Positions 5,758-34,996 of a stretch of 64,000 bases of DNA are shown here, in pieces. How positions within the stretch are numbered: position 1 is the first letter of the stretch; each line of letters begins with the position of its first letter. The position numbers were made by a program, and so were the translations under genes. Source of the DNA: a virus (Duplodnaviria > Caudoviricetes); the IMG/VR virus record IMGVR_UViG_3300031992_000029, positions 32,001 through 96,000 of that record. One strand, given 5' to 3'. The notes under the pieces are model-generated. The model saw nothing but the letters and a program-made list of their open reading frames with translations. It was not told the DNA's origin and made no database searches.

Positions 5758-5769
5758 GGAGGAAAGGGT

Positions 5770-6051: not shown

Positions 6052-6067
6052 AGGAGGCTCGCATCTT

Positions 6068-6895: not shown

Positions 6896-6905
6896 GAGGA
6901 GTTGT

Positions 6906-9900: not shown

Positions 9901-11324
9901 TAAGTTACGAAGACGGTCAGTTAACTATTAAAGCAGATAAGGTTTCTATCGGAGGCGATGATGTTACATTCTCCATAGCAAATGCAAAGAGAGACGGGTC
10001 AAGATATGCGACTAACTACCTATATTATAGTCCCGAGAAAGGTCTTGTCGTATCAGGTTATGCTCCGTCTTCTGATGCGGAAGTAGAGACACTTGATAGT
10101 TATAACAGTAGAGTTACAAGTGAGGGTTTCGACGTATACGAAACCGGTGTGGATAGGGTCGCTCACTTCGGGCAAGTAACTGTACTTGGAAAGGAAGGGC
10201 AGTCAAGGCAAATTGTTGACGGCGAATCTTTGTCGTTTACTACGAAGGAAGGCACGACTGTATTTACGGTTGAAAATAGTATAGCTGGAAGTGGATATTC
10301 TACTGATGAAGATGTACAGCTGTCATCTATAGGCACTTACTTAAACTCGGATAATACTCTTAACAATGAGGCTGTTGCGGATATTATAGCTAGTGTTGCT
10401 AACGGAAAAGTAATGACATCTTCACAGTACGACTTTGTGTCGTCTGCGTATAATACGTCGTTAGAAGCAGAGTTGTTTGGATACGCATTTGTTGAGGTGG
10501 AATATCAAAGCGGAGAATCTGCTGACGATGATTCTCAGACTGAAACAGGAGACGAAGATATCACTTCGGGAATTGAACAAACCCAACAATTCTCTTCCAT
10601 ACTATATTTAGATCATACTATTGAGTATAACGACGGAACAATGACGGCAACGGCAGGTGAAGTGCTAGGTCCGAACCTTGATAGCTTTGTAGACGCATTT
10701 GCCAATATGTTCCCAACAGGATCAAAAAATCACGAACTATTTCTGAGATTTACGCTTAGATACGAGATGGCCGATGTACAAATGACGGTCGGGTCTAGAA
10801 AGGATGACGGACTCACAGGTTCGCGTTCGGTCTCCATAGGGAGCGACAATGTATCTTCTGGGGTAGGGTCTGTTGCGATTGGAAAAGATATAACCGTAAC
10901 AGATAACTATTCTGTAATTGTAGGCGAAAAGAATATTCCGATAAAATATTTGAACACAGATACAGTAATACCAACAGCTTTTGCGGTAGGCACTAACGGC
11001 AAAACGCCATTTGCGGTATTAAAGAATGGTACTGTAACCATGTCGAGTGTGAACGGTGGTGAGGTGGCACAGCGTACATACAAAGCGTACTCTCTAACTA
11101 ATATAAGAGTTGATTTTGAGGTAGAGTATCCAACACCACCATTCATATTCTTAACTCTTAACGAGGATAATGTTCCTAATAATAAGACAGATATAATAGG
11201 ATACGGAAGCATACAGGTATATAAAAAGACGGTTGATACAACAGGATTTACGGCGACAGTTGTAAATGGTTCATCGAAATCACATACATTTAGTTTTAGC
11301 TGGTTTGCAATCAGCGTAATGTAA
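6906..11324 (+). CDS. Tail hub/spike protein (Tal-like) with Zn-finger insert and C-terminal lectin-like domain
   Basis: Follows Dit; CLSC...CKKC insert; [15 protein letters not shown] spike motif; C-terminal ...PPFIFLT...FSFSWFAI typical of H-lectin/gp53-like tips. Confidence 0.75.
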
Positions 11325-11334
11325 TAGGCTTACG

Positions 11335-11362
11335 AAAAGGGCTGGCATATGCTAGCCCTTTT
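11335..11362 (+). terminator. Hairpin/terminator before giant tail gene
   Basis: AAAAGGGCTGGC-ATAT-GCTAGCCCTTTT. Confidence 0.6.
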
Positions 11363-11365
11363 AGA

Positions 11366-14300
11366 ATGGACGGATTTATGGATATTCAAGTAAATGTAGT
11401 AGGTCAGAAATTAAAACTGGCTAAGAATTATAAATCTTTGATAGACGGGTCGCAAAAGTTTATACGATTCGTATTTAATCTAGACGGCAGTTGGACTAAT
11501 CTTGTCACATATGCACAGTTTACGCAGGATGGTAAATCTTATAATTGTTATTTAGATAGCGATTCGTCTGTGTATATGCCGCCTGAGATAACGGTTGGTG
11601 AGTGTACAATAACTTTAAGCGGCACACTTAATGGCATAATAGCTACAACCGATTATGTTACAATAGAAATTTTAGATAATATATTAACTACCGGAGAAGA
11701 GAGCACAGAGATAACTGAGTCTCTATACGAGCAGTTAATAGATAGAATTAATGAAGTTGAATCGGGGCAGTCTGGATTTAGCAGGCTTGTTGCCGAAGAG
11801 GAGAGTCAAAGGACATCTGAGGATGCGGCTATACGTAAGTTGATTGACGACTTGTCCGCTTCTCAAAACACATTAAGTCAGAAAATAACTGGTGAGGGCA
11901 CTGCTAGATCTGAAGCAGACGATAACCTTAAAGCCCTAATAAATACAGTTGCTAGAAATATTAGTAGCGAAGAATCAGAGAGAAAGGATGCCGATTCTAA
12001 TATCTCTAATAATATTTCAAGTATGCAATCGAAACTTGAACTTGAATCAGTAGAAAGGTCACAGCAGGACGCCGCTTTAAATAGTAGAATTGACCAGATA
12101 CTTGCTATACAGGAAGGGAGTACTACTGGAGATGCTGAGCTACAAGACATTCGAATCGGTTATGACGGAGTTGAATACCAGTCTGCAGGCACTGCGGTAA
12201 GAACTCAAATAACAAAAACTAATAGTAGAGTCGACGAAAATGCTGTATCTATAGGAGAAGTGTCTTCTACTGTTGACGAACTGTCTGGAGCTATGAATTA
12301 TAAGGTTGACGGTGCATTCGTTGAGGACGGCGTAGCATACTTTACAAGCGATAATAATGTCCTCTTTTCTATCACTGGTATCGGCGGTGGAGGAGGAGGT
12401 GGTGGAGGAGGCGACTCGTCCTCTTCTACACTTGTATTACAGAATTTAACAGGATGGATTTCTAAAACAATATCTGCGAACAGTACATGCACACTACATC
12501 TAAATTGGTCCTCTCTTATGGACGGAATGGAGACTGGTAGCGGAACAATGTCTGTTCAAGCAAGAGGAGCTAATGTTCTTAATAGATCAATCGCTCAAGG
12601 AGAATTTGCTGTAGATGTCACCAAGTATTTACAGTCAGGTTCTAATAGGATTAGGGTTACAGTTACAGATTCATACGGTACAACTAAATCAATCATATTT
12701 ACTATAAATGTAGTTTCGCTAAATATAACTTCTACGTTTGATCAAGGTATTGCGAGAACTGGCTCGTTTGATGTTATTTATACAGTAACAGGTTCTGGCG
12801 ATAAAGTAGTACATTTTATAATAGACGGCACAGAGGTTGCAACTGATGTAGTACAAACGTCTGGAAGACAAATAAACCATAATTTTGAGGCGTTACCTCA
12901 CGGTAGTCACATTATTGAGATATATGCTACTTCGACTGTAGACGGTGAGGATGTCGAGTCGAACCATATATATTTATCGGTAATTTCAGTACAATCCGGG
13001 AATAACACTCCTATTATATCATCTTCTTATAGAGTGACTGAGGTAAGGCAGTTTGAGACTATTGTTATACCTTATTATGTTTATAACCCAGCAAGTTATA
13101 CTGCAAACGTTGGTATTTATATTAACGGAGAACTTTGGTCGTCACAAACAGTAGAACGTACACAGCAGCTTATTTCGTACAGGGCTAGGACATCTGGAGA
13201 TTTAGCAATTCAGATTAGATGTGGTTCTGAATCAAAAACTTTTGTAATAAATGTAGGTAAGGCAGACTCGTCTCTCGAACCTATTACAACAAAGCTATCA
13301 TTATATCTGCCTGCAGAAGGTAGGTCTAATAATGAAGCTAATCCTGGAACATGGACTTACGGTACTACATCTTCCGAGTTCAATAATTTTAACTTTGTTT
13401 CAGATGGATGGCTGCACGATGAAGCAGGAAACACGATGCTAAGGGTCACAGGTAACGCTCGATTAACTATAGATAATCTTCTGTTCCAAGACAATTTTAC
13501 TACAGACGGTAAGACGATAGAATTTGAGTTTAAAACATCGAATGTTTTAGACTATGATTCAGATATTATTACATGTTGGAGTAACAACCGTGGCATAAAA
13601 TTCACTGCTCAAAAAGCAACTATTGCCTCCGAGGGTGCTTCTATTAGTACTCAATTTAAAGAAGATGAACACGTAAGACTGAGCTTCGTTGTAAGCCCTG
13701 CTGATACAAGATTATTATATATTTACATAAACGGAATTATTTCTGGTGTAGTACAGTATCCAGAACGAGACGACTTCTCTCAATCGAATCCAGTTCCTAT
13801 ATCTATCGGGTCGTCAGACTGTACAATAGATATATATAATATCAGAATATACGACTATGCGTTGAGCTCTAACAATATAGTTACTAACTGGATAGCAGAT
13901 ACTCAAGACATAAACGACATGCTTGAACGCCATGAGAGAAACGATATTATTGAAGGCGGGGAAATTTCTATTGATAAATTGCCTGCGAATCTGCCATATT
14001 TCCTGATCGAGGGAGAGGCGCTACCTCAGGCTAAGAAAGATGCAAAGATAATATCTGGTCGTTATGTAGACCCTGTTAATCCTGATAGGTCTTTTACTTA
14101 CTATGATGCGTCGTGCGATGTGCAGGGTACTTCTTCACAGAACTATCCTAGAAAGAATTATAAAATAAAGTTCAAAAACTTTACGAATAATAATGGCGAG
14201 ACATCGTCTACGTATTGCCTAAGGGGATCAGACAAGTCAATCCCGAGTAAGGTGTTTTGCTTTAAGGCGGACTATGCGTCGTCTGAAAGTGCAAATAACG

Positions 14301-17300
14301 TTGAGCTTGTTAGGTTATACGAAGATTCGTGTCCTGTTAAGACTGAGGCACAGCAAGAAGATGAAACAGGGCTTGTGCGTCAGGGAATAGACGGCGTGCC
14401 TATCGTTATATTCTGGTACAAGCCGTCTACTGGCGTTACGACATTTATGGGCAAATACAACTTTAACTTCGATAAGTCTTCACCGATTTTCGGATTTGAG
14501 GACGGGGATGAATCGTGGGAAACAATAGACAACTCGAACGAATGGGCTATGTTTAAAAGAGCCGATTATGACGGCGATGGATGGCTGAAAGGATTCGAGG
14601 CAAGATACCCAGATCTGGACAATCCGTATACAGACGCAACTAATCTGTCAGCTATGGCTCAATGGGTTAACTCGACTGACACGGATGGAACGAGATTTGA
14701 CATAAGACTACCGGATAATATTGTGCTTCACGGCGGAGGAAGAAATGGCGATGGCGTATTTAATAAAGCGCTGGATACGTCATTTTGGAAATATTTAAGC
14801 ATTGTTAGAACTCCTACATATAAGTGGGATTTAACAGAGCTAAAAGCAAGTAGCGCTTATGACTCAGAAAATCAATGCATGAAATTATCGAACTCGTTAT
14901 TTGTAATTACATTTGGTAATGCTGGGTCGACATTGTATGACGGTAGCGAACTTTCAAAGGACGGAACCACACGGTATAACGCCGTGCATAGGTTTGATGC
15001 GGCGACAGGAGAATCTCTTGGATATAATACAGCTATCTCCGCATATCTTCAGTATACGGATAGTGGGTCATTTAATACTGGTAGCCGTGCAAATTATCAG
15101 CAGGAGTTTTACGCTGCTTATTCAAATGGTATTTATTTTGAAGTACCAGTTTATGAACAGGACTCAGATTATTTCTATGCGTATTGGTCTAAAACACTAC
15201 CTAACGGATTTGTGCTTCCAATAGGAGTTGAGCCTGGCGATGTAATTTACGCTGGTAAAAACACACCGTATTACGGACTTAAAAACATAGATGATACGCT
15301 TGTAGAATTCGAGACACCAGTTGTGTACAGAGAGGAATACGGCGACGGAGAATATAAAGAACTCCGATTCGATTTCGACTCTGTGCAGTATAGGATAGCT
15401 AAGTTCAAATTCGAACTTGATAATTGGTTTAATAAAGACGACGTGCTATTTTATTATTTATTTACAGAGCTTTTCCTTATGATTGACTCGCGAGTTAAAA
15501 ACTCGTTCCCTACATTATATGCGTCAAATCAGGGGGCTAAGTGGGTATGGTTGCCATACGATATGGATACTGCTATCGGTATCAATAACGAGGGTAAGCT
15601 GGTGTTTGATTATTCGCTAGAAGATATTGATATGTTATCAAGAACCGCTGGCGTTTACAATGGATACAAGACTGTAATGTGGAACAATGTAAGAGATGCG
15701 TTTCAAAGCGAACTTGCTTCGATGTATCAAAGACTACGTGCTGATGGTGTGCTATCATATGACGTTGTTGAGAAGAGATTTGAAGACCATCAGAGCGTAT
15801 GGCCAGAAACTGTATTTAATGAAGACGCATATTATAAATACATACAGCCATTTATAGACAGCGGTGATGACAATTTATACATGTGTTTAGGGTCAAAAGC
15901 CGAACAACGTAAATGGTGGCTATATAATAGATTCAGATATATAGATTCTAAATATAACGCAGGATATGCTAGAACAAGTTTTATCTATGCGCGTGTTTAT
16001 CAAAAGTCTGATCTAGTAATTACGCCATACGCTAGTATATATGCAAGCGCAGAATACGACAGTAACCTGGTTAAAACGAGAGCAATAAGAAATATCAGTA
16101 CAGTTGTTCCATCTCCTGAAACATGGGATCCAGGCGGAGCCGACGCTGTACTAAGAATTTATTCAGCAGACCAGCTAGCTAGCGTTGGTGATTTAAGCCC
16201 ATTCTATGTTGGTGAGATATCATTTGCGGCTGCGGTTAAACTGAAAGAAATTAAAATTGGCGACAGTAGCCCGTCATATAGTAATGAGAACTTACAAAAT
16301 CTTATCTTAGGAAATAACTCACTGCTTAAGTCCCTTGACGTTCGTAACTGTCCAAATCTTAATAAATCTATTGATATTAGCGGATGTACTAATATAGAAG
16401 AGATATATTTCGATGGCACATCTATTACTGGCTTGAATCTTCCAAATGGTGGCATTATCAAAACTCTGCATTTACCCGGAACGATATCGAACCTCACAGT
16501 ACTCAATCAGCAAAATATAACAGATTTTGTTTTAGATAGCTATTCGAATATTTCAACGCTTAATATTGAGAACTCATCAATTGACGAACTACCGATTTTA
16601 ATTGGTATGTCAAACGGAGGCAGAGTACGTTTGATAAACGTCGACTGGACTACATATAACATAGACGAAGCCGAAGAACTCATAGGAAAATTATATAGCA
16701 GCCGTGGTATAGATGCGTCAGGCAATAATACAGATGCGGCTGTAGTGACTGGAAGGTACCATGCCGCTGTAATAAGCGACTGGCAACTGGATAGACTGTC
16801 TAAGTTCCCTGAGCTGATAGTTACATACGATGATCTCACTATATACAAATGGAAACTATATTCGTATTTCGACAAGACGCTTACTAGATATGACGATCCT
16901 GTTATAACAAAGATATCGAGCTACGCATTTAGAGGTAGGTGGCCCGACGGGTTCGTAATAAACACGCCGAATGTTTCCGAGATAAAACCGTTTGCGTTTT
17001 ATGCATGTGTGCCCGAGAGTATTGAGCTAGGTGAAATGCCGCTTGTAACAGAACTACCAGCAAGATGGTGTAATATGTCGCTTATTAAAAGCATGTCGTT
17101 TCCAAATTGCAGGACGCAACATATATCTGGTGATTCTATACTTGGTACGAGTGGAGTTCACAATGGATGCCCGTCATTCAAAGAATCGTTCCCAAACCTC
17201 ACGACTTTATGGAATGATTCTACAACTGTAAGTGGGACGCTTATGAGGAATGCATATTTTAGAGATTTCGATGCGCCTAATTTGGTTAATAATAATGTTA

Positions 17301-17800
17301 TGCCTACTAGCATGTTTAATTCATGCTCATCATTTATATACATATATATGCCAAAATTTACTGGCACGGTTACGGGATATCTTTATACGTCTTCTGAGAA
17401 CGGACTTCTTGAATACATTGTTGCACCAGGTATTACGATGTCTAATGGAACTATAACTCTGCCTACGAAATGTAAGTATATTGAAATTTTCCACGATAAT
17501 ATAGTTGGAAAGCAGAATTCAAGGACTGGTAATAACGTAGAACATTTGGTTTTAAGGGACGCATCAAATATTTCGACAGCGGCTGGATCAGACGGAGTCT
17601 TTTACGGTAACACTAATTGCGTTAATGTGTATGTAGCAAGAGATTTAATATCTGAGTATCAAGCTGCAACTAATTGGTCGTTAATGGAGGCTAATAATTT
17701 ATGTACATTTAAAGCGTTAGAGGATTATACAGTCGATGGGACATTGACGGGGGAGTTTAACTACTCGCTGATCAATATGGAGGTATATCATGAATCGTGA
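11366..17800 (+). CDS. Giant tail-associated protein: BppU-like N-terminus, coiled coil, LamG-like, CotH-kinase-like and LRR/BspA-like domains (real start probably ATG 11378)
   Basis: [44 protein letters not shown] (CotH-like); IYINGIISG...DIYNIRIYD (LamG-like); [12 protein letters not shown] (LRR). Confidence 0.8.
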
Positions 17801-23129: not shown

Positions 23130-24983
23130 ATGGCTAATAATAAAGTTGAGTTATCAGACGGAAGTGTGCTGATAGACCTATCGCAAGATACCGTAACATC
23201 GTCTGACCATATTATGTCAGGGTATGTGGGGCATCTTGCGAGTGGCCTACAAGTCACAGGAACAGGAAATAATTATGTTATGTCGGATTGGAATGCTGAA
23301 GAAGTAACAGACTCTGAATCTGGAGAAATAACTGGATACGAAGATGGGTATATATTAAATAAACCCGCTATAAAAGCAGGCGAAGGTGAAAATAGTATCG
23401 TTGAAGGAATGATTGAAGATGATAATGATTCTAGAGTTTATACTATATATTTAACTGGCGAAGCGGGTGCTACTACTTTTACCTACACAACAGAAGATGA
23501 AACAACTAGAAACGAAATAGCGAAAAAAGCAAACGCAATACCATCAATAGGAATTGTTTATAGCCCTACTGGGTCAAATTCTCTTTATAGGACATCAAGA
23601 ATTAGTAAGATTGATTCAGAAAATTCAACTATTACTTTAAAAAATATAATAAATACGAAAACTAAAGCAGTAGAAAATCAACAAGCATTTATTTATTATC
23701 ATAGTAAAAATATTGCAATAAGCCCTTATTGTCATGCAGAAGGTAAAATTACTTTTGCATATCTGGGGGCGGCACATGCTGAAGGTATGTATACTGCGGC
23801 GGCGGGGTCTTATACACATGCTGAAGGATATGGTACTACAGCTATGTCACAATACAGCCATGCAGAAGGTAATAAAACTAGAGCTTCTGGCCCAGGAGCA
23901 CACGCAGAGGGTTCGTTAACAATAGCCGATAGCGGATATGCACATGCAGAAGGATATTATACTAAAGCACTTGACCAATCTTGTCATTCTGAAGGACATC
24001 ATACAAATGCTTCTAAAGCGGCTTCACATGCAGAAGGAAGAAATACAATAGCTTCTGGGTCATGCTCTCATGCGGAAGGAAACTTTGCGCTAGCTTCTGG
24101 TTTCGGTTCTCATGCTGAAGGTAATGTAGGATATATATTTATGAAATTAACAGGTGAGCCTAATGCAACAACATATAATTTTACTGAAAGTTATGCTTCT
24201 AATACTATTTTATTATTAAAAATGGCTCATACAAAAATCATAAGCGATACTGCTCATAATAATTTTAATCTTAATACTAGTTCTTATTCAACAATCACTA
24301 ATATTGATTTTAATAATTCGACCATAACTGTAGATACAACGTTATCTGACACAGCAATTTCTGATGTACAATACTATATATATTTAAGAACAGAAGCTAG
24401 TGGAATAGCATCTCATGCCGAAGGATTAAGTTCTTTAGCTTCTGGAGAGGGTTCTCATGCCGAAGGACGTCAAACACTTGCTAACGGAATTTATTCTCAT
24501 GCAAATGGGTATCTTACAACAGCTTCTGGAAATTATTCACATGCCGAAGGAACTCTTACAACAGCCTCTGGCAATAATTCTCATGCATCTGGTGAATTAA
24601 CAACCGCCGCCACAAAAGCGCAAACTGTAATCGGAACATATAATATCCCAGATGATACCACCACAAATCTTCATCCTAGTCAATATTCTGGATTTGGTAA
24701 ATATGCTTTTGTGGTTGGCAATGGATATGATACAGGAGGTGCATCTAACGCACATACTCTTGATTGGCAAGGTAATGGGTGGTATGCAGGTAAATTAACT
24801 GTAGGTAGTAATCCTACAGGAAATATGGATGTAGCAACAAAACAGTATGTAGATAATCATGTTCCAGATTTATCTGGTTATGTTGCAACTTCAAATTTAG
24901 CAACTTTAGTTAATCCTCTTATTCAAGCCGCATTAGCTGAATATGGAGATGGAGATACTGCTACTTATGGGACAACATCATAA
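23130..24983 (+). CDS. Tail fibre/adhesin with 14-aa (S)HAEG repeats (Hep_Hag/YadA-head-like)
   Basis: About 16 HAEG-type repeats in two blocks; N-terminus paralogous to the 22505 protein; DVATKQYVD knot motif. Confidence 0.8.
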   Translation: MANNKVELSDGSVLIDLSQDTVTSSDHIMSGYVGHLASGLQVTGTGNNYVMSDWNAEEVTDSESGEITGYEDGYILNKPAIKAGEGENSIVEGMIEDDNDSRVYTIYLTGEAGATTFTYTTEDETTRNEIAKKANAIPSIGIVYSPTGSNSLYRTSRISKIDSENSTITLKNIINTKTKAVENQQAFIYYHSKNIAISPYCHAEGKITFAYLGAAHAEGMYTAAAGSYTHAEGYGTTAMSQYSHAEGNKTRASGPGAHAEGSLTIADSGYAHAEGYYTKALDQSCHSEGHHTNASKAASHAEGRNTIASGSCSHAEGNFALASGFGSHAEGNVGYIFMKLTGEPNATTYNFTESYASNTILLLKMAHTKIISDTAHNNFNLNTSSYSTITNIDFNNSTITVDTTLSDTAISDVQYYIYLRTEASGIASHAEGLSSLASGEGSHAEGRQTLANGIYSHANGYLTTASGNYSHAEGTLTTASGNNSHASGELTTAATKAQTVIGTYNIPDDTTTNLHPSQYSGFGKYAFVVGNGYDTGGASNAHTLDWQGNGWYAGKLTVGSNPTGNMDVATKQYVDNHVPDLSGYVATSNLATLVNPLIQAALAEYGDGDTATYGTTS

Positions 24984-25000
24984 AGAGGGGGTGATTTTAA

Positions 25001-25924
25001 TTGGCAAACGAAAATAAGGTTATAGTTACAAAAAATAAATTAGATATATTAGCAAATAGTATTTCAGCCAAATCTGGAGAATCACTTCCTATGACCATTG
25101 TGGGAATGATTGATGCAGTAAATGGAATGAGTTCTGCCACATTAATATCAAAAACAATTACCACTAATGGGACATATACCGCTTCAAACGATAACGCAGA
25201 TGGTTATTCTAGTGTTACAGTTAATGTTCCACCTACTACTCCTACCCTTCAATCTAAAACAATAACTCCAACAGAATCAGTACAAACAATAACTGCTGAT
25301 TCAAATTATGATGGCCTTGATTCTGTAGAAGTTGGAGCAATTAGTTCGACTTATATTGGTAGTGGAGTAGCTAGAAAAAGTTCAACTGATTTAACTGTTT
25401 CTGGTGCGACAGTAACAGTTCCAAGTGGATATTATGAAGAATCAGCTTCTAAATCAATTAGTTCTGGCTCTGCTACTACTCCTGCAACAACCATTACTGC
25501 TAATCCCAGTATTAGTATTAGTTCATCTGGCTTAATTACTGCAACAGCATCAGCTTCGCAGAGCATTACACCTACGGTATCCGCAGGTTATGTATCTACA
25601 GGAACTTCTGGTACCATAACAGTAAATGGTTCTAATACCCAACAATTAACAATATTAGGGGCTACTACTTATAATACTTCTACTACAGATCAAACCATAA
25701 CTTCTGGAAAATATTTAACTGGGACTCAAACTATTAAAGCTGTAACTGTTAGTGGATTAGATGCAAGTAAAATATTGAGTGGGACTACTGTAATGGTTGG
25801 TGACGCAAATGATGCAGACAGAATTGCTAGTGTGACTGGTACTGTAACATTTTCAACAATTACGACATCATCATCAAATCCATCAGGCGGATCTGATGGT
25901 GATATTTGGATTAAGACAAGTTAA
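25001..25924 (+). CDS. Ser/Thr-rich tail fibre protein
   Basis: KTITTNGTYTA..DGYSSVTVNV and C-terminal PSGGSDGDIWIK fibre motifs; GAGGGGG RBS, TTG start. Confidence 0.7.
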   Translation: MANENKVIVTKNKLDILANSISAKSGESLPMTIVGMIDAVNGMSSATLISKTITTNGTYTASNDNADGYSSVTVNVPPTTPTLQSKTITPTESVQTITADSNYDGLDSVEVGAISSTYIGSGVARKSSTDLTVSGATVTVPSGYYEESASKSISSGSATTPATTITANPSISISSSGLITATASASQSITPTVSAGYVSTGTSGTITVNGSNTQQLTILGATTYNTSTTDQTITSGKYLTGTQTIKAVTVSGLDASKILSGTTVMVGDANDADRIASVTGTVTFSTITTSSSNPSGGSDGDIWIKTS

Positions 25925-25938
25925 GGAGGGATTAATAT

Positions 25939-27333
25939 ATGGCAACAATTAGATTAATCCCTTCTAATTACGGACGAAGTAATACTAACTATGTGACTGT
26001 AACGAATCCAGAAAATATGTATAATAATACTGACCATACAGCAAATTATTGTACATTAAGAGGTAGAGCTGGTAGAAGTAGTAATAGTACATACTACGCT
26101 TTTGTTAACGGATTTAATTTTGATGATGTTCCAAGTAATGCAGATGTAACTGATTTTAAAGTTAAAATTAGAGCCTATAGAAGTTCTTATATGGCTACTG
26201 GTAATACTAATTATCGTATTTCTTTAGCAAGTCAGGCATCAAACAGCTATAAAATAGGTAATACAACCTTATCTTCGGATATTACCACAACTGCTGGCGG
26301 AACAGTGTATGAAATTCCTACCGGAAGTTTAACTTGGGATACTATTAAAGGTTATGGTTCAAATTTTTCTATTGATATACCTTTAAGAAATAGTTCAACT
26401 TCAAGTAGTAACTATCCATATGTATATGTATATGGTGCTGAAATAGAAGTTACCTATACAATGCCTAATCCTAGAACGGTTACTACTACACTAACTGGTA
26501 ATGGTATAATAGATCCGAGCGGGACAGAAACTTACTATGATGATGATGAATATAATTTAGTAGTAACTCCTACTAATGCCTCTGATACTGTAACTGCGAC
26601 TAAAAATGGAACAACGATCACTTTAACTCAACACAGTGGCGGAGAATCAACTGAGTCAAATGTATTGGGAGAATATAGTTTAATAAGTGGCGGTTTAAAT
26701 GGTTCAGGTGCGACATATTTTCAAGGCATAGTTGGTCGCGGATATGATACTAGTACTACAACAACATCGAACTATTATTCTAGTGGCTCTGGTACTAATG
26801 CGGTATTTCAATATGACGTAGGTTTTACTGATATACCTGATAATGCTACGATTAAAAATTTATATATGATGGCAAATGGACACGCAGAATCAACATCTAA
26901 TTCTAGTGAATATATGTGTGTGCAACTTAAAAGTGGAAATACAGAACTATCAGAACGGTATAATTTTAAAAGTGCGGGTACTTCTAATTCAACTCAAACT
27001 ATTAATGCTACTACTTTACCAACTGCTGCGCAATTAGAAAATTTAGTAGTAGAATGTACTCTTGGTTATTATGGCGGCGCAATTAATGGAGTAACTGTGT
27101 TTTTAACTTATGAGGTTAGTGGCGTTTATTATACTTACAGCACGACAATTAATGGTGATATGACTGTTGTGGTTACTATTGGAAGTGTGACTCAAAATAA
27201 GATGTATATAAAAATAAATGGCTCTTGGGTTGAAGTATCGAAAGTATATAAAAAAGTTAATGGCTCTTGGGTCGAACAGACTAATTTAACTAGTGTGTTT
27301 GATTCAAATGTTAATTATAAATTTGTGAATTAA
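25939..27333 (+). CDS. Tail fibre/receptor-binding protein with duplicated beta-sandwich domain
   Basis: FDDVPSNADVT / FTDIPDNATIK repeats; C-terminal KINGSWVE...KVNGSWVE. Confidence 0.7.
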   Translation: MATIRLIPSNYGRSNTNYVTVTNPENMYNNTDHTANYCTLRGRAGRSSNSTYYAFVNGFNFDDVPSNADVTDFKVKIRAYRSSYMATGNTNYRISLASQASNSYKIGNTTLSSDITTTAGGTVYEIPTGSLTWDTIKGYGSNFSIDIPLRNSSTSSSNYPYVYVYGAEIEVTYTMPNPRTVTTTLTGNGIIDPSGTETYYDDDEYNLVVTPTNASDTVTATKNGTTITLTQHSGGESTESNVLGEYSLISGGLNGSGATYFQGIVGRGYDTSTTTTSNYYSSGSGTNAVFQYDVGFTDIPDNATIKNLYMMANGHAESTSNSSEYMCVQLKSGNTELSERYNFKSAGTSNSTQTINATTLPTAAQLENLVVECTLGYYGGAINGVTVFLTYEVSGVYYTYSTTINGDMTVVVTIGSVTQNKMYIKINGSWVEVSKVYKKVNGSWVEQTNLTSVFDSNVNYKFVN

Positions 27334-27493
27334 ATATAGCTGATATTTATATAAGTGATGCAAAGATGGTTCGATTTTATACTATTTGGGATGGTAGTCA
27401 TATACGGCATAGAGGATGTATTATTGATGGTAGTCTTATGGCTGAAAACGTAGAATACGAATCAGTACAGTACCAAAAGAGTATTTAAACGAA

Positions 27494-27868
27494 ATGAGTT
27501 TTATATTTTATAATCCAAACCCAGACGGTAAGTATGTGGGAGACTGTGTTATTAGGGCGGTTTCAAGGTTGCTTCATCAGGATTGGGATACAACATATTA
27601 TGATATCTGTGAGCTCGGCGGTCATATACACAACATGCCGAGCGCAGACGATGTATGGGGCGAGTATCTATATCGAAATGGTTTTAGAAAACATACGATA
27701 CCAGATACATGCCCCTTTTGTTATACAGTAAAAGATTTCTGTCTGGATCATCCTATAGGCAGTTTTCTATTAAAAACATCCGGTCACGTAATAGCGGTTG
27801 TAAACGGGAACTACTATGACACGTCTGATTCGGGTAACGAAGTACCAATTTATTATTGGGGAAAGTGA
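27494..27868 (+). CDS. Putative papain/NlpC-like Cys peptidase fold protein (cassette gene 1)
   Basis: YNPNP..GDCVIRA, GHVIAV, YYDTSDS give a Cys-His-Asp arrangement. Confidence 0.55.
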   Translation: MSFIFYNPNPDGKYVGDCVIRAVSRLLHQDWDTTYYDICELGGHIHNMPSADDVWGEYLYRNGFRKHTIPDTCPFCYTVKDFCLDHPIGSFLLKTSGHVIAVVNGNYYDTSDSGNEVPIYYWGK

Positions 27869-27875
27869 GAAATAA

Positions 27876-28214
27876 ATGAACAATTCAAATCCAAATATGA
27901 ATGTCCAAGGACAAAACGTGCAAGGCGTTTATAACACCCCTCAAAGTTTTCAAGTCCTAGTACTAGACGACATATCACAGGCAGGCAATTATCAAGTCAG
28001 CCCAGGATGCTCGACAATCTTTATGAATTTTGCAATGACAGAAATGAGGATGAGAACAAGAGACATGAGCGGGTTCCCCTTACCAGACAGAACGTGGTCT
28101 ATAAAAGAGACCACACCTCAACCGCAGATCGCTAACTCTGGAAATTTTGCAACCAAGGAAGAAGTGTCTGCGATTAACGACAAGCTAGACAAGCTAATTG
28201 AGATGATGAAGTAA
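27876..28214 (+). CDS. Asn/Gln-rich hypothetical protein (cassette gene 2)
   Basis: 112 aa, C-terminal FATKEEV coiled-coil. Confidence 0.7.
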   Translation: MNNSNPNMNVQGQNVQGVYNTPQSFQVLVLDDISQAGNYQVSPGCSTIFMNFAMTEMRMRTRDMSGFPLPDRTWSIKETTPQPQIANSGNFATKEEVSAINDKLDKLIEMMK

Positions 28215-28221
28215 GGAGGAT

Positions 28222-28428
28222 TTGAAAATGGAACAGAATTTCGCACAACAGCTGCAGTCCTTTATCGCTGCGGCACAGCAGAGGTTCGGTAAGAACCTCG
28301 ACCCTTCCGCGATAGCTAGAAGCGTGATTGGTAATGGATGCTCTTCACCTCGACAAGCGCTAGAGGTAATGTTAAGATCCGGCCGGATAACGCAAGAGCA
28401 ATTTAACATGTACTCAAGAATGCTTTGA
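28222..28428 (+). CDS. Small Gln-rich helical protein (cassette gene 3)
   Basis: AAGGAGG RBS; LRSGRITQEQFN motif. Confidence 0.7.
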   Translation: MKMEQNFAQQLQSFIAAAQQRFGKNLDPSAIARSVIGNGCSSPRQALEVMLRSGRITQEQFNMYSRML

Positions 28429-28482
28429 ACTATAAAGTAACTTTTTAAAATTTTTTATTACTCTAATAGGAGGAGAAAAATT

Positions 28483-29337
28483 ATGAGCTTAAGTGAAAGC
28501 GGCCTTAGTGCAAGTGATGTACTGGCACTGACAAACGGTAACAATGACGGTTTTGGAAACGGCTTCGGCGGTGGCTGGTGGCTGATTCTCTTTATCCTGC
28601 TTCTCAGTGGCGGATTCGGACGCGGTTGGGGATACGGCGGCGGCAACGGCGATTCCGGTAACGGTATGGCTAGCATGGCTATCCCTTATATGATGGGTAA
28701 CTCTTACAACGCCGACGTACAGAGAGGGTTTGACCAGTCCGCAGTTATTACTGCACTTGGAAATCTTTCCACGGCTGTTTCTGCCGGTTTTGCAAATCAG
28801 TCCGTAGACGCTTGTAACAAGGCAATGACGATGATGCAGGGCATGAATGGCATCCAGGCTCAGATGGCATCTGATCGTTTCAACACAATCACTACTTTGA
28901 ATGGTGGTCATAACGCAATTCTTCAGCAGATGGGTGCATATGAGATGGCTCGTCAGCAGTGCTGCTGTGACAACAAGGCTGCTATCGCAGACCTCAAGTA
29001 CACTGTTGCTACAGAAAATTGCGCAGACAGAACCGCTCTTGATAACGCTGTTTGGCAGATTGGTCAGAAGATCGACGCAGGATTTGCTAACATGACGGAG
29101 CAGAGATATCAGGATAAGATTGATTCCAAGAACGAGCAGATTGCTAACCTTCAGAGACAGCTTACCGCTCAGGAACTTGCCGCATCTCAGGCTAATCAGA
29201 CTCAACAGCTCTATGCAAACAATCAGGCTCAGACCGATAGGATTATGGACTTCATCAATCCTGGATACGCAAGACCTTTCTATGGAAACGGTTTTGGTAA
29301 CTGGGGTGGCTGCGGTTGCCAGGCTTGTGCTTCCTAA
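28483..29337 (+). CDS. Gly-rich membrane-anchored coiled-coil protein with CCC motif (cassette gene 4)
   Basis: AGGAGGAG RBS; GFGGGWWLILFILLLSGGFG; QQCCCD; C-terminal GCGCQAC. Confidence 0.8.
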   Translation: MSLSESGLSASDVLALTNGNNDGFGNGFGGGWWLILFILLLSGGFGRGWGYGGGNGDSGNGMASMAIPYMMGNSYNADVQRGFDQSAVITALGNLSTAVSAGFANQSVDACNKAMTMMQGMNGIQAQMASDRFNTITTLNGGHNAILQQMGAYEMARQQCCCDNKAAIADLKYTVATENCADRTALDNAVWQIGQKIDAGFANMTEQRYQDKIDSKNEQIANLQRQLTAQELAASQANQTQQLYANNQAQTDRIMDFINPGYARPFYGNGFGNWGGCGCQACAS

Positions 29338-29351
29338 GAAAGGAGGTACTT

Positions 29352-29777
29352 ATGGCTGAATATACAAATAACGTTGATCAGGTTGTTCAGCCTGGTGGCG
29401 TGGTTATATTTAACGTAGTCGTAGAAGGATGCCGCAAGGGTTTTATCAGGCACCGTAACGGCACTGGTTCTTTCCTTCTGTCTGGAGCAAATTGTTGCAG
29501 ATGTAACCCGAAGTATAGTGTTAAGTTCGGCGCGAACATCGGTGTGCCTACAGGTGAAACTGTCGGCCCTGTTTCTCTCGCACTTGCGATTGATGGCTCT
29601 GCCGATAACTCAACTATTATGACGGTTACGCCAGCCGCCGCGGAGGAACTCTTTAACGTTAGCAGATGTTCCGATATTGATATCTGGAGCGGATGTTGTG
29701 AAACCATCGCAGTCCAGAACGTTGGTACAATTCCTGTAACTGTCAATGCTCCTACAATTTCTATCAAGAGGGGATAA
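29352..29777 (+). CDS. Cys-containing jelly-roll protein, BclA C-terminal/TNF-like (cassette gene 5)
   Basis: AAGGAGG RBS before ATG 29352 (MAEYTNN); all-beta pattern; CCRC, GCCE. Confidence 0.6.
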   Translation: MAEYTNNVDQVVQPGGVVIFNVVVEGCRKGFIRHRNGTGSFLLSGANCCRCNPKYSVKFGANIGVPTGETVGPVSLALAIDGSADNSTIMTVTPAAAEELFNVSRCSDIDIWSGCCETIAVQNVGTIPVTVNAPTISIKRG

Positions 29778-29779
29778 TT

Positions 29780-30229
29780 ATGGAAATTAGAGTTTACATG
29801 GATGCCCTGGAAGTGATTGAAAAAGAGATTAAGGGCATTGTTAAGAAAGATTCTATCACACCAGCTGAGCTGGCAAATTTAAAAGAAGCTCTGTGCGCTG
29901 CAGAGAAAATCATTGACATTATTGGCGACCTCCCTAATGATGCAAATGATTACAGCAATGGTACTGGGTACGCTCAGTCCTATGCTATTAGACCTGGATT
30001 CAGGCATGAATATGAAGCGCCATATTCGTACAGGCGCGGAAGGTCTATGACAACTGGTCGCTATATCAGTCGTGGTGAGGCCGGAAGAAACTATGGAGAT
30101 GTCTATAGTGGACATAGCATTCACGACAGAATGGTAGCCAAGATTGAAGAAATGTACGATGAAGCAAAAACTGACCATGAGCGTCAGGTAATCGATAATG
30201 CTATTCGCATGATCGAACAACACTCTTAA
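29780..30229 (+). CDS. Helical protein with RRGRSMTTGRYISR motif (cassette gene 6)
   Basis: 149 aa, 2-nt gap from the previous gene. Confidence 0.7.
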   Translation: MEIRVYMDALEVIEKEIKGIVKKDSITPAELANLKEALCAAEKIIDIIGDLPNDANDYSNGTGYAQSYAIRPGFRHEYEAPYSYRRGRSMTTGRYISRGEAGRNYGDVYSGHSIHDRMVAKIEEMYDEAKTDHERQVIDNAIRMIEQHS

Positions 30230-30241
30230 GTGTTGTCAAAT

Positions 30242-30312
30242 GGCGGCGGGCTTTATGCCTGTCGCCTATACTAAAACAATGAACAACTAGGCCGTCGTAT
30301 GGCGGCCTTTTT
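30242..30312 (+). terminator. Two hairpins closing the cassette
   Basis: GGCGGCGGGC-TTTAT-GCCTGTCGCC and AGGCCGTC-GTAT-GGCGGCCT+TTTT. Confidence 0.7.
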
Positions 30313-30339
30313 ATATTGAAAAGAATTAAAGGAGATGTC

Positions 30340-32331
30340 ATGTCGAAATTAGTAATGGACATATCTCAGTTTAACAATATAACTGATTGGTCTAAGGTTA
30401 AGAATGAGGTCGATGCTGTCATAGTGAGAATAGGATATAGAGGTTCTCATACAGGCATAATCACATATGATCCAAAGTTTGCAGATAATATTAAAAATCT
30501 GCAAAAATATAACATTCCTTATTCTGGATATTATTTTCCATGTTCAATTAACGACAACGAGGCTGATGAAGAAGGCGACTTCATCATCAAGACAATCAAA
30601 AACTATAATATGGAACTATCTCTCCCATTCTATCTTGATTCGGAACTTGTACATAGAGATAAGTCAGGAAGATCTGACAAATTATCTAAGGCTGATAGAA
30701 CACGATTCTTGAATAGAATCTTTGCGAAACTTAAATCGGCTAACATAAGGTATGGTGTCTACGCATCAACGTATTGGTATTCTGACCATTTAAATGATGA
30801 CGATCTTATGGAAGGTGTATCAAGGTGGGTGGCGCAGTATGCATCTGTAAATGAATATTCAAGACATAGTTGTGACATGTGGCAGTATACATCTAAGGGT
30901 AGTATCGACGGTGTGTCTGGCGTCGTAGACCTTAGTAACTGCTATATTGAGATCACAAAAAATCATGTTGATACTAAACAAACTGATAACAAAATGAAAA
31001 CGGTTGATGAATACATCGACGATGTTATTAGCACAGCTAAAAATGAGGTCGGTTATTTAGAGAAAAGGTCAAATTCTAACTTAGACAACAAGACGGCTAA
31101 TGCCGGATATAACAACTATACAAAATATTGGAGAGACATCAAAAGTTGGGGTCTTGGTAATTATCAAGCACAGTACTGGTGCGCAGCCTTCATCTTTTGG
31201 TGCTTTGTAAAAACATTTGGTGTACAGACAGCAAAACAACTTTTACTACACGCGCCATATATTAATTGTCAGACGATAGCAAATCTATTTAGGTCGAGAG
31301 GAAAATTATTTAGCGATCCGAAGGTAGGTGATGTAGTTGTATTCTACACCAGAAAGTCAGGACTGTTTGGTCATACTGGTCTAGTCTATAGGGTCGACTC
31401 TTCTAACTTTTATACGATTGAGGGAAACACGTCTGCGGCTGGTGGCGTTGTAGCAAATGGTGGCGCTGTTGAATACAAACGATACTCTATTAAAGATTCA
31501 AAGAGTGCTGGTCATAAGTTCTGTAGACCTGATTATACAATCATCAAAGGAGAAAGTCATGTTCCTGTAAAGGAAAACAAAGACTATTTATCCAAGGGTG
31601 ATAGCGGTAGCAATGTCAAGGAAATGCAAAAGATGCTCATAGCTATAGGATATACATGTGGATTAGGTGGAGCAGACGGCAACTTCGGATCGATTACAGA
31701 AAGCGCTGTTAAATCTTTTCAGAAAGACCACGGTCTTACTGTTGACGGTGTGTGCGGTAAGAAAACAATGCCCGTTCTTAAGGCAGAATATGCTGCAAGA
31801 AATTATCTGTCAAACACCGATACTGGTAGTGCTGTAACAGAGATGCAGAAAATGTTGGTTGCACTTGGTTATAACGTAGGTACAAAAGGTGCCGATGGCA
31901 TTTTCGGGACAACGACAGATAAGGCTGTGCGAAAGTTTCAAGCAGAGCATGAACTTGCCATCGACGGACGGTACGGGCCAAAGACTAAAGCCGAATTAGA
32001 ATCCGTTTACGACGAGTATCTTAAAGAAAATGAACAGAAGGAAGTTGTGCAAGAAACGCCAGAAGCTCCTGAAGAAGTGAGTGGTAAGGCAGAAGAAGTA
32101 AAGGTGGCATATGCGAGCGCATTTAATTCGGCATATGGCAAGACATTTACTGCAACTGGAGACGTTTATATGAGGGCTGGAGCAGGAACATCATATAAGG
32201 ATATAACTGTTGTAAAGAAGGGTGACAGTGTGAAATGCTACGGGTACTATACGAAAGTAAACGGGACGCCGTGGTATTTAGTCACATATAAAAATATGAA
32301 GGGATTTGTATCCGGCAAGTACCTCAAGTAA
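30340..32331 (+). CDS. Endolysin: GH25 muramidase + CHAP + 2x PG_binding_1 + SH3
   Basis: MDISQFN, YLDSE, WQYTSKG (GH25); WCAAF, GHTGLV, TIEGNTS (CHAP); DGNFG..T..AVKSFQ x2; VYMRAGAGT (SH3); AAGGAG RBS before ATG 30340. Confidence 0.9.
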   Translation: MSKLVMDISQFNNITDWSKVKNEVDAVIVRIGYRGSHTGIITYDPKFADNIKNLQKYNIPYSGYYFPCSINDNEADEEGDFIIKTIKNYNMELSLPFYLDSELVHRDKSGRSDKLSKADRTRFLNRIFAKLKSANIRYGVYASTYWYSDHLNDDDLMEGVSRWVAQYASVNEYSRHSCDMWQYTSKGSIDGVSGVVDLSNCYIEITKNHVDTKQTDNKMKTVDEYIDDVISTAKNEVGYLEKRSNSNLDNKTANAGYNNYTKYWRDIKSWGLGNYQAQYWCAAFIFWCFVKTFGVQTAKQLLLHAPYINCQTIANLFRSRGKLFSDPKVGDVVVFYTRKSGLFGHTGLVYRVDSSNFYTIEGNTSAAGGVVANGGAVEYKRYSIKDSKSAGHKFCRPDYTIIKGESHVPVKENKDYLSKGDSGSNVKEMQKMLIAIGYTCGLGGADGNFGSITESAVKSFQKDHGLTVDGVCGKKTMPVLKAEYAARNYLSNTDTGSAVTEMQKMLVALGYNVGTKGADGIFGTTTDKAVRKFQAEHELAIDGRYGPKTKAELESVYDEYLKENEQKEVVQETPEAPEEVSGKAEEVKVAYASAFNSAYGKTFTATGDVYMRAGAGTSYKDITVVKKGDSVKCYGYYTKVNGTPWYLVTYKNMKGFVSGKYLK

Positions 32332-32340
32332 GGAGAAGAA

Positions 32341-32706
32341 ATGGGAAGTATTATTAATCAATTTATTGCAGAGTACGGAAATACTATTATTTATACAATT
32401 ATCACTGGAATTATTGGATATGTTGGAATTGGAATCAAGATGCTTATTACAAAGTATATCAATGATAGTCGTAAGAGATCCATTGCGAGAACTTGTGTAG
32501 AAGCTGTTGAGCAGATTTGTAAAACACTTGATATCCATGGAGAAGAGAAGTTTAAGAAGTGTGCGGAATATATTTCTGGACTTGCTAAAGAAAATGGCAT
32601 TAAGATTGGAGAGACTGAAATCAAAATGCTTATTGAACAGGCCGTACATACACTCAATCAAAATGTAAATGAGGCACTAGATAACAAAGCGCCTATTGAA
32701 GAGTAA
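32341..32706 (+). CDS. Phage holin, LL-H-like
   Basis: One TM helix; VEAVEQ...GEEK...LIEQAV; follows endolysin. Confidence 0.8.
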   Translation: MGSIINQFIAEYGNTIIYTIITGIIGYVGIGIKMLITKYINDSRKRSIARTCVEAVEQICKTLDIHGEEKFKKCAEYISGLAKENGIKIGETEIKMLIEQAVHTLNQNVNEALDNKAPIEE

Positions 32707-33453: not shown

Positions 33454-33801
33454 TTGCGTAAACTTATCAGAAGGTCAAAACCATACGCAGTTACGCAATC
33501 TTATACGCAATTAATACGCAACACACATCGATTTGTAGTCATATGATACCTTGTGGTATAAGCCAGTAGCTTAATAGTATTGTGCATTTTACACTATAAA
33601 AACGCAGTTTTATAACGATTCTCTAGTGTAAAAGCGGATATACAAGAAGTTATTTTGCACTGACCTGAATTGCTAAGTTGCCATCAGAACGGCTTAACTA
33701 CGTCGATTTCGCGAAATCGTACGCAAGTCTTACGCAACTCATACATATCTATAGTCAATATGATGAAAAAATGCGTACGCAATTTGTGACTTTTTACGCA
33801 A
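33454..33801. other. Putative attP with TACGCAA arm-type repeats
   Basis: Seven exact TACGCAA (33492, 33504, 33515, 33720, 33731, 33776, 33795), one TACGCAG (33484) and one inverted copy (33454) next to the integrase 3' end. Confidence 0.7.
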
Positions 33802-34996
33802 GTAGGTCTCCGGCTTTGAGTACGGCTTCATTAGTTTTATCTTCTAGCACATGTGTGTAAGAAACTGTAGTACTATAATTTGCGTGACCCATTATATTTT
33901 GTATAACAAGTGGGTCTAGTCCTTTCTCAAAGCATCTTGTAGCAAATGTGTGGCGAAATGCGTGCGGATAAATGTGCTCAAACACTCTTGGCTCTCTGCC
34001 CTCTATGAATGCAGTTCTCGATTCGTTAAGATTTATATTATCTTCCACACGTTTCATGTCGTGGATAATATTATATCTTGTGACCGGTGAGCCGAATGTG
34101 GTTGTAAACACTAAGTCTCCAAGCGACGGGTCTGCTCTCCATCTGCTACCTAGTTTCTTCTTATATATATCCTGTTTCTTTTTCCAGTCTTTAAAGAATT
34201 GTTCTACGTCACCAAAGAAAGGTATATCTCTATACGAGTTAGCTGTTTTTGGCGTTGTAAGTTCGAGAATCTTTTTGCCGTCAAGGTATCCTGTTTGCAT
34301 GGATCGACGGATGTGAATCTTTTTTCTTTGGAAGTCTACATCGCCCCACTGTAATCCAGAGAACTCTCCGATTCTCATGCCTGTTAACAGTAGTATCCTA
34401 TACATCTCACGATAGTAGCTAGTCTCAGTAGCTTTTAAAAGTGCGTCTTGTTCCCAGTGGCTCAGTACCCTACGTTCTTTCATAGCCTCATTTTCGTCTC
34501 TAATGCTTATTCCAACGATAGGATTAAACACTATTATCTTATTGGCTATTGCGCTGTCAAAGCATTCTCTTAGTTGGCTTAGCGCCTCACTCAGTCCTCT
34601 GCTAGAGTAGTTTCCTATATCAGCAAGTTCGTTGGTCGCATCCTGTATATTCATTTGGCTTATATCTTTTAATAATTTATTGCCAAGTATTTTAATATAC
34701 GTGTTATCAACTCTTCTTCTATAGGTTTTCCTGCTTATCTCTGACTTTAATTGCCTCGACTTGCATTTTTCAAACCACTCATCAAACCAACTCTTTAACG
34801 TAAGATCTGGTCTTATCCCTTTCTCATCTCTTAACAGCCTCGCTTTCTCTTCTTCGAAACTCTTCTTTAAAGCTGGTAACGACATATTATATATGTCAAT
34901 TTTCTTGCCGTTTACTACGGCTCTGGCTTCATACCTCCCGTCTGGACGTTGACTAAAACCACGTCCGAGTTCCTTGCCTGTTAAATCCTTTCCCAT
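33794..34996 (-). CDS. int: Tyrosine integrase
   Basis: TGMRIGE, TPKT, HAFRHTFATR, MGHANYSTTVSY; N-terminal arm-binding domain. Confidence 0.95.
   Translation of the reverse strand: MGKDLTGKELGRGFSQRPDGRYEARAVVNGKKIDIYNMSLPALKKSFEEEKARLLRDEKGIRPDLTLKSWFDEWFEKCKSRQLKSEISRKTYRRRVDNTYIKILGNKLLKDISQMNIQDATNELADIGNYSSRGLSEALSQLRECFDSAIANKIIVFNPIVGISIRDENEAMKERRVLSHWEQDALLKATETSYYREMYRILLLTGMRIGEFSGLQWGDVDFQRKKIHIRRSMQTGYLDGKKILELTTPKTANSYRDIPFFGDVEQFFKDWKKKQDIYKKKLGSRWRADPSLGDLVFTTTFGSPVTRYNIIHDMKRVEDNINLNESRTAFIEGREPRVFEHIYPHAFRHTFATRCFEKGLDPLVIQNIMGHANYSTTVSYTHVLEDKTNEAVLKAGDLLA

Follow-up and report, generated by a model that had tools for sequence, protein, structure and literature searches.

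A portable six-gene cassette of gut and rumen tailed phages with predicted cysteine peptidase and jelly-roll products

Introduction

What six closely spaced genes lying between the tail fibre and lysis genes of a tailed phage do for their carrier is the question raised by a stretch of 64,000 nucleotides of viral DNA (Duplodnaviria; Caudoviricetes), which corresponds to positions 32,001 to 96,000 of IMG/VR record IMGVR_UViG_3300031992_000029 and is referred to here in its entirety as the window. The genes, designated g1 to g6 and together called the cassette, were picked out in a sequence-only reading, which proposed that they may build a disulfide-linked trimeric surface or membrane structure matured by the g1 product. 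We find that the six genes form one unit shared by otherwise dissimilar phages. Our leading interpretation, offered tentatively, is that they form a self-contained and mobile operon, accessory to the tailed phages of gut and rumen that carry it; the operon would be used in the lytic cycle and specify a multi-protein assembly inside the infected cell.

Results

A conserved and portable six-gene unit

The cassette consists of six open reading frames (ORFs) on the + strand, spanning positions 27494-30229 of the window with intergenic gaps of 2-54 nt, and is closed by a pair of hairpins (Table 1). The first of these, 3' of g6, has a 10-bp stem, and the second has an 8-bp G+C-rich stem followed by the T-run UUUUUAUAUU and is also called by a terminator scan. 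Folded together they reach -37.3 kcal/mol (z = -5.2), and 0 of 200 shuffled sequences are as stable. Both the close spacing and the closing hairpins are as the sequence-only reading described them.

Related loci were gathered with a profile of g4 (23 from bacterial genomes and 80 from viral contigs), iterative hidden Markov model (HMM) searches were run for each gene, and co-occurrence was counted over 106 related loci. All six genes are present in the same order in 56 of the 106, and most of the loci outside those 56 are either cut by contig ends or have g1 at the far end; g4 is the most widespread of the genes and g3 the least (Table 1). The median gaps along the series are 2, -8, 60, 12 and 12 nt, and no ORF matches two cassette families at once. 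The six genes form one unit, and the survey, which includes phages of non-sporulating hosts, finds them co-occurring in a fixed order, as expected of the self-contained cassette originally proposed.

The surroundings of the cassette are diverse, with 65 distinct neighbour families upstream and 46 downstream, ~90% of neighbours being on the same strand. Recurrent neighbours include a large terminase subunit, an HNH endonuclease, a connector protein, a DUF7211 protein and a GH25 endolysin, and cassette genes lie within 7 kb in only one of 77 phages with a related endolysin. Given this diversity of neighbours and the near absence of endolysin linkage, the cassette is a portable, optional module usually placed in the late-gene direction. 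The closest endolysin relatives are at most 51% identical, so that no clean natural deletion is available for comparison. Neither the linkage nor the signals of a lysis accessory such as a spanin or an antiholin are found; the cassette does lie adjacent to lysis genes here and at some other loci.

A complete series is present in a cultured phage. In the Butyrivibrio phage Ceridwen the genes g1, g2-like, g3, g4-like, g5 and g6 follow the endolysin gene, with a gene encoding a 264-aa Cys-rich, endonuclease-like protein inserted between g5 and g6 (locus L001, 7518-8312). A gene of ~105 aa follows g6 in Ceridwen and in several other loci (neighbour families 16 and 36). In Dulem virus 39 a variant series adjoins integrase and replication genes. 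The hosts include isolates of Eubacterium ruminantium, Selenomonas and Anaerovibrio, with the cassette residing in prophages of the latter two genera, and the host of Ceridwen is Butyrivibrio fibrisolvens; Butyrivibrio, Selenomonas and Anaerovibrio do not sporulate. Host labels from other phyla, which come from metagenome-assembled genomes, may be binning errors. The cassette is present in 4 of 301 genomes from the family of the E. ruminantium genome and in 2 of 301 from the class of the Anaerovibrio genome, and is very common in viral and metagenome contigs. Only lytic growth has been observed for Ceridwen, and its genome has no integrase annotation (PMC7372960). Full-text literature searches found no paper describing the cassette.

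Searches across the six products

The motifs named in the sequence-only reading are all present in the translations, including DC...H...D in g1, CCC and GCGCQAC in g4, eight cysteines in g5 and YSYRRGRSMTTGRY in g6. Pfam, NCBIfam and PADLOC contain no significant model for any of the six proteins, and in PHROGs all but g6 fall into families of unknown function, including phrog_3754 for g1 (4e-24), phrog_21718 for g2 (6e-5), phrog_16490 for g4 (5e-16) and phrog_20016 for g5 (1e-36). The g4 and g5 families are large, and the statement in the sequence-only reading that similar clusters recur in gut phages with no assigned function is correct. Searches of the ESM Atlas with g4 and a g2 homologue return only unnamed viral clusters, and a DNA-level search of the phage collection found no match to the cassette.

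By a crude test for hydrophobic runs, g4 is the sole cassette member with such a run, and the cassette has no lipobox; homologues of g1, g2, g3, g5 and g6 have no signal-like segment and no run of 10 or more hydrophobic residues. Since these five proteins lack signal-like segments, the cassette products are probably assembled within the cell, and a Sec-exported surface layer is unlikely unless lysis releases the material.

The g5 product is predicted to be a C1q/TNF jelly roll

The g5 product contains its eight cysteines, with a conserved GCC pair, within 141 aa, and belongs to a family of 465 clusters at 50% identity, nearly all of 100-170 aa. The AlphaFold2 (AF2) model has a mean predicted local distance difference test (pLDDT) score of 96.1, and a Foldseek search of the PDB gives 9h38 as the best match (E 2e-7), followed by 7r1m, 8d02 and 1wck, with template modeling (TM) scores of 0.68-0.75. 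The closest structures are the F-BclA C-terminal domain (CTD), ExsFA, BxpB and the BclA CTD, and then the TNF-family ligands EDA-A1 and 4-1BBL. A total of 143 PDB chains match the fold at E <= 0.001, the C-terminal domain of chlamydial Pgp3 being among them. The model indicates a stand-alone jelly roll of the C1q/TNF class, closest to ExsF and the BclA CTD, which upholds the earlier assignment of a BclA-CTD/TNF-like jelly roll. Homology to BclA-C at the sequence level is not established; g5 has no match to Pfam BclA-C, and its best profile match, to 9h38, has an E value of only 0.011 (domain E 4.2).

The nearest BFVD structures are those of stand-alone proteins, 130-145 aa long, from gut contigs labelled as sipho-, myo- and podoviruses. 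In a search for fused forms no g5 relative of 248 aa or more was found, and the few matches of 180-220 aa are chimeras with N-terminal pieces of g1, g2 or unrelated proteins. In two metagenome proteins (P0174 and P0241) the N-terminal part of g1 or g2 is joined directly to g5; these may be deletions within the cassette or assembly artefacts.

The nearest structural comparison is with the exosporium and the F-type endospore appendages (F-ENA) of the Bacillus cereus group (PDB 7r1m, 8d02, 9h3d, 1wck and 9h38). There, an N-terminal leader peptide docks between subunits in a cleft of the ExsF trimer, and BclA loses its residues 1-19 by cleavage (PMC12357932). Like ExsF, g5 is stand-alone, about 140-170 aa in length, and has the same jelly roll; as in that system, a partner with a conserved N-terminal element (g4) is present, and here it is encoded beside g5 together with a dedicated peptidase. 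Unlike the exosporium pair, the cassette has no collagen (Gly-X-Y) repeats in g2, g3, g4 or g6, is phage-borne, and occurs mostly in phages of non-sporulating gut and rumen anaerobes. The plan of an elongated, helix-prone body with a C1q/TNF-type head is also common to Pgp3, to the adenovirus and PRD1 spikes and to C1q, although in the cassette body and head are separate gene products, and the body has a hydrophobic anchor and cysteine clusters, with no heptad repeat detected.

The g1 product resembles papain-like cysteine peptidases

The sequence-only reading described g1 as a Cys-His-Asp peptidase-like protein, and the structural data agree. The AF2 model (pLDDT 95.5) has a papain-like fold with Cys18 at the start of a helix, and Cys18, His98 and Asp109 are invariant among 43 homologues. 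In an all-against-all structural search the top 25 matches are all clan-CA cysteine peptidases; the Z scores of 5.1-6.9 are middling and the list is homogeneous. Among the matches are staphopain, Josephin and the C39 domains of PCAT1, ComA and LahT, the last three with Z scores of 6.1-6.8. Foldseek returns weak rows only for g1, which has no significant match in Pfam (Peptidase_C39 included) or NCBIfam, and a g1 profile run against PDB sequences recovers only the short CPxC stretch of a glutaredoxin (E 0.19). We predict from the model that g1 folds as a minimal papain-like, C39-like cysteine peptidase.

As in C39 peptidases, the putative nucleophile at the helix start is followed by His and then Asp within a papain-like fold. 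In addition, the N-terminus of the commoner form of g4 (type A, see below) fits the leader spacing L(-12) S(-11) D(-8) I/V(-7) V(-4) G(-2). Unlike C39 peptidases, g1 is free-standing, and no ABC transporter is encoded beside it.

A CPFC...C motif at residues 73-83 of g1 locally resembles the active site of glutaredoxin, and its cysteines could provide a redox or metal site; of 81 g1 proteins encoded in cassettes, 70 have CPxC...C. Homologues that stand alone, in Bacillus phage Tsamsa, Geobacillus phage GBK2 and the Lak megaphages, have no g2-g6 nearby and keep the triad, but unlike most cassette g1 proteins they lack the CPxC...C cysteines. A tie between the CPxC motif and the cysteine content of g4 and g5 was considered and rejected: in the 11 of 81 g1 proteins without CPxC the partners are still Cys-rich, and the two features are not strictly linked.

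In eleven variant cassettes g1 is missing, and a gene that follows the g6-like gene encodes instead a 105-aa zincin resembling DUF6782, SprT and M78 peptidases. The cassette thus seems to require a peptidase, with g1 and the zincin being mutually exclusive.

The g4 product has a leader-like N-terminus, a hydrophobic core and a Cys-rich body

The g4 family is very large, with more than 6613 clusters at 90% identity. From the N-terminus, the protein has a leader-like motif LSASDVLALTNG, a Gly/Asn linker, a hydrophobic core (WWLILFILLL) with Gly/aromatic flanks, a helix-prone body that is rich in Gln, Asn and Ala, poor in Gly and Pro and carries the CCC motif, and a Cys-rich tail with the GCGCQAC end. 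The alignment contains an invariant EMARQQCC(C) motif and further conserved cysteines.

The N-terminus occurs in two interchangeable forms. Type A (72 sequences) has the logo L/M/Y-S-A-A-D-I/V-A-A-V-T-G-N, which fits positions -12, -11, -8, -7, -4 and -2 of double-glycine leaders; the pattern matches 60 of 106 g4 proteins as against 5 of 7147 other ORFs. Type B (22 sequences) has the motif M-x-M-P-V-x-P-M-Y-G-G, ending in GG. Ten g4 N-termini compared with NCBIfam models for exosporium leaders, YjcZ-type proteins and bacteriocin leaders gave no match even at E 10.

In 89 of 97 homologues the hydrophobic core is 11-13 residues long, and the flank upstream of it is acidic, with 2.1 Asp/Glu as against 0.25 Lys/Arg. 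Sec signal anchors, unlike the g4 core, carry a basic flank according to the positive-inside rule. Because of its length and its acidic flank, the core is not a classic signal-anchor transmembrane helix. With the acidic upstream flank and the near absence of basic residues, we infer that the large C-terminal part of g4 is probably cytoplasmic. Of the features ascribed to g4 in the sequence-only reading, the Gly/aromatic segment and a hydrophobic core stand, the transmembrane helix in its classic form does not, and the long coiled coil is not verified as a heptad repeat. The g4 profile has at best weak coiled-coil matches among PDB sequences, and PADLOC gives a weak match to PbeC (E 7.5e-4, 16 bits) over a low-complexity helix.

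A 238-aa ORF runs antisense within g4, most likely as a by-product of the biased composition of g4.

The g2, g3 and g6 products

These three are low-complexity proteins with short conserved cores. The g2 product starts with an N/Q-rich segment and ends in a helix, with a small conserved domain between them; the alignment has heads rich in Tyr, Gln and Pro and the motif V.GE..A..YPV..G...L.D.....FY.KS.D..G.P.P.R. No significant match to Pfam (member-wise scans included) or to PDB sequences was found for it. The g3 product is Gln-rich and helical, with a conserved ...P.Q....L.SG..(S/T)Q.QFN... motif; in Pfam it matches only SHOCT and two tape-measure families, TMP_2 and TMP_3, all below threshold and not trusted. 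The g6 product has helical ends around a middle rich in Tyr, Ser, Arg and Gly (YS..RGR....GRY.SR) and no significant family match, and is replaced in the variant cassettes by a more divergent form rich in Tyr, Met, Arg and Gly.

Codon use

The G+C content at third codon positions (GC3) is 0.35-0.52 in the cassette and 0.50 in g4, compared with 0.24-0.40 in most other phage genes and 0.14-0.17 in the three upstream tail-fibre genes. The bacterial flanks of the record have GC3 of 0.5-0.65, so the codon use of the cassette is host-like. In g4, ATA makes up 0 of 14 Ile codons, TTA 1 of 19 Leu codons and AAC 18 of 27 Asn codons; the corresponding ranges in the three tail-fibre genes are 35-49%, 56-76% and 11-19%. 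The share of C-ending codons is higher in g4 than anywhere else in the late region. The C-ending bias noted by eye in the sequence-only reading is therefore real, and the high expression deduced from it is one of two readings: the bias fits high expression or recent acquisition and proves neither. The phage encodes a cluster of tRNAs for Leu(TAA), Lys(TTT), Ile(TAT) and Asn(GTT), the first three of which read A-ending codons favoured by the phage and not by the GC3-richer host flanks.

Boundaries and genomic setting

The region between the last tail-fibre gene and g1 contains a direct repeat, GATGGTAGTC, at 27390-27399 and 27426-27435. The two copies are 36 bp apart and flank a weak promoter-like site at 27395-27424 (score 9/12). 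There is no other copy in the window, and 76 of 100 shuffles contain two or more matches by chance, so that the repeat is only a possible operator. The terminator scan found none between the tail-fibre gene and g1, an Rfam search of positions 27000-30600 gave no match, and in a search for a promoter shared upstream of related cassettes only A/T-rich words and Shine-Dalgarno sites recur.

The g3-g4 spacer has no significant fold in this window (z = -0.8). In many related loci (e.g. L037, L041, L022 and L017) the spacer, ~60 nt long, frequently contains a small stem-loop; in some loci it pairs with sequence just 3' of the g4 Shine-Dalgarno site; the structure recurs and the sequence differs.

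The viral record is 137 kb long, of which roughly 117 kb is phage, with bacterial flanks outside. The first of the three tail-fibre-like genes encodes 617 aa of repeated ..SHAEG..T.A.G.. units, and with GC3 far below the rest of the phage the three look like a separately acquired receptor-binding module. The integrase gene is not at a prophage end, and lies in the middle of the phage region at a strand switch. The late ORFs at the left of the window include giant ones, and a 3356-aa ORF begins upstream of it.

Table 1. Features of the cassette and its surroundings, in window coordinates
Feature	Position	Strand	Description	Related loci with gene (of 106)
g1	27494-27868	+	124 aa	81
g2	27876-28214	+	112 aa	96
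g3	28222-28428	+	68 aa; TTG start, in-frame ATG two codons in	75
g4	28483-29337	+	284 aa	104
g5	29352-29777	+	141 aa counted from ATG	97
g6	29780-30229	+	149 aa	85
Closing hairpin pair	30242-30315	+	second one resembles an intrinsic terminator	
Hairpin 1	30242-30266	+	3' of g6	
Hairpin 2	30289-30308	+	followed by T-run	
Upstream intergenic region	27334-27493	+	direct repeat and weak promoter-like site	
Three tail-fibre-like genes	23130-27333	+	directly upstream of cassette	
Endolysin	30316-32331		GH25, CHAP, peptidoglycan-binding and SH3; downstream lysis gene	
Holin	32341-32706		downstream lysis gene	
Antisense ORF in g4	28489-29205	-	238 aa	
Integrase	33794-34996	-	tyrosine-recombinase-like	
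Giant late ORFs	166-17800	+	1472 and 2144 aa	
End of 3356-aa ORF	166-5718	+	last 1850 aa	
tRNA cluster	60856-61723	-	Leu(TAA), Lys(TTT), Ile(TAT), Asn(GTT)	

Discussion

How the accessory operon that we tentatively favour might work can be sketched from the predicted properties of its products. The g4 protein would form the core of the assembly, with the Cys-rich body staying in the cytoplasm and the short Gly/Trp-flanked core either inserting into or lying on the cytoplasmic membrane, or buried in an oligomer. The conserved 11-residue N-terminal element of g4 would be removed by g1, as with a double-glycine leader; alternatively or additionally, it might dock in the cleft of a g5 trimer, as exosporium leaders do in ExsF. 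The g2, g3 and g6 products may be adaptors or holdases, and the cysteine clusters would lock the assembly through disulfides or metals upon opening of the cell. The role would be a late function at the cytoplasmic membrane or in the lysing cell, independent of virion architecture. This is the weakest step, and is favoured because the neighbouring genes are unrelated and because close structural relatives of g5 occur in contigs labelled as all three tailed morphotypes. Membership of the lytic cycle is put forward with the same reserve, on the presence of the cassette in Ceridwen and its rarity in host genomes.

On the best reading the product is not a spore coat. An exosporium-like coat was among the options raised in the sequence-only reading, and is now disfavoured because the hosts include non-sporulating genera, g4 matches no exosporium-leader model, the cassette is rare in host genomes, and signal-like segments are missing from all products but g4 by the crude hydrophobic-run test.

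Several observations weigh against the scheme. Unlike the small peptides processed by C39 peptidases, the presumed substrate g4 is a protein of 284 aa, and residue -1 of type A is mostly Asn (51 of 72), which is atypical of C39 substrates. Type B contains two prolines and so cannot be a helical leader of the kind bound by C39 domains. The A/B type of g4 changes 7-10 times on every gene tree, so it neither co-varies specifically with g1 or g5 nor helps to tell removal by g1 from docking on g5. Repressor cleavage is common among peptidases of the M78/SprT type, which the zincin of the variant cassettes resembles, and the zincin may therefore not stand in for g1 in function. A 12-residue core is short for a bilayer, and Fourier analysis of g4 hydrophobicity has peaks at ~4.85 and 3.65 residues and no heptad peak at 3.5 residues. 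Disulfide locking is uncertain in the reducing environment of the gut and rumen. Placement beside connector, tail and terminase genes is equally compatible with a virion component.

A more specific proposal, which is possible but rather doubtful, is drawn by analogy with spore appendages and the exosporium nap. The cassette would be a portable kit for a protease-matured, Cys-locked anchor-and-knob structure, built on their principle, with leader peptides docking into a C1q-like trimer, and used in vegetative, non-sporulating cells during lytic infection.

The strongest of the rival explanations, itself unlikely, is a virion appendage in which g4 is the stalk and g5 the knob of a head or tail side fibre that aids adsorption or adhesion in the gut, with g1 maturing it and g2, g3 and g6 serving as chaperones or adaptors. 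Structural proteins likewise have no signal peptides and are made late and in quantity, which fits the codon use, and many phage and giant-virus fibres end in BclA-CTD-type or C1q-type knobs. The position of the cassette directly 3' of three tail-fibre-like genes here, and near connector and terminase genes elsewhere, points the same way. However, with at least 65 upstream contexts, and with g5 relatives in BFVD labelled sipho-, myo- and podovirus, such a fibre would need a universal docking site, and the Dulem virus 39 cassette adjoins integrase and replication genes. The WWLILFILLL core would be odd in a soluble fibre, g5 is never found fused to a shaft, and among PHROGs annotations the only structural one is a single g6 match at E 0.02.

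It is less probable still that the cassette encodes a weapon or matrix that is released and acts outside the cell after lysis. The weapon would be a bacteriocin-like, membrane-inserting agent with g5 as binder, the hydrophobic N-terminal peptide of g4 as effector and g1 as activator; the matrix would be a cross-linked protective or adhesive layer around virions, and the two options share this low estimate. The pairing of a double-glycine-like leader with a C39-like peptidase is suggestive here, as is the Gly-rich hydrophobic N-terminal region of g4 with its terminal cysteines, features that resemble colicin V-type peptides. The Q/N-, G/F/W-, Y/R/G- and Cys-rich sequences of the cassette are cohesive, and release by lysis requires no export signal. 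Set against this, the window has neither an ABC exporter nor an immunity gene next to the cassette and none stood out among the neighbour families characterised, g4 is far above the size of class II bacteriocins, and no bacteriocin family is matched.

Prophage cargo, that is a moron altering the host envelope for superinfection exclusion, defence or surface change, is the least probable explanation: the cassette is self-contained, having a terminator of its own and perhaps a promoter, lies between tail fibres and lysis genes ~3.5 kb from the integrase, and has more host-like codon use than the rest of the phage, but no PADLOC system model matches beyond the weak PbeC hit of g4 alone, the 4 of 301 and 2 of 301 host genomes contrast with its abundance in viral and metagenome contigs, Ceridwen has been seen only in lytic growth and has no integrase annotation (PMC7372960), and the cassette is co-directional with late genes in ~90% of loci.

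For the mobile accessory operon of the lytic cycle that we prefer, intact transfer among phages that are unrelated, and whose gut hosts are monoderm in some cases and diderm in others, implies that the cassette must be of general benefit during infection. The full cassette is present in a cultured pair, Butyrivibrio fibrisolvens DSM 3071 and Ceridwen, which makes the question directly testable. If the anchor-and-knob proposal is true, the structure built, whether cellular or extracellular, would belong to a class not previously known from phages and would have a function new to phage biology. Identifying the advantage that the cassette confers would allow thousands of phage genomes to be annotated at once, and could bring to light an unrecognised step of the lytic cycle or a previously undescribed structure made by phages.

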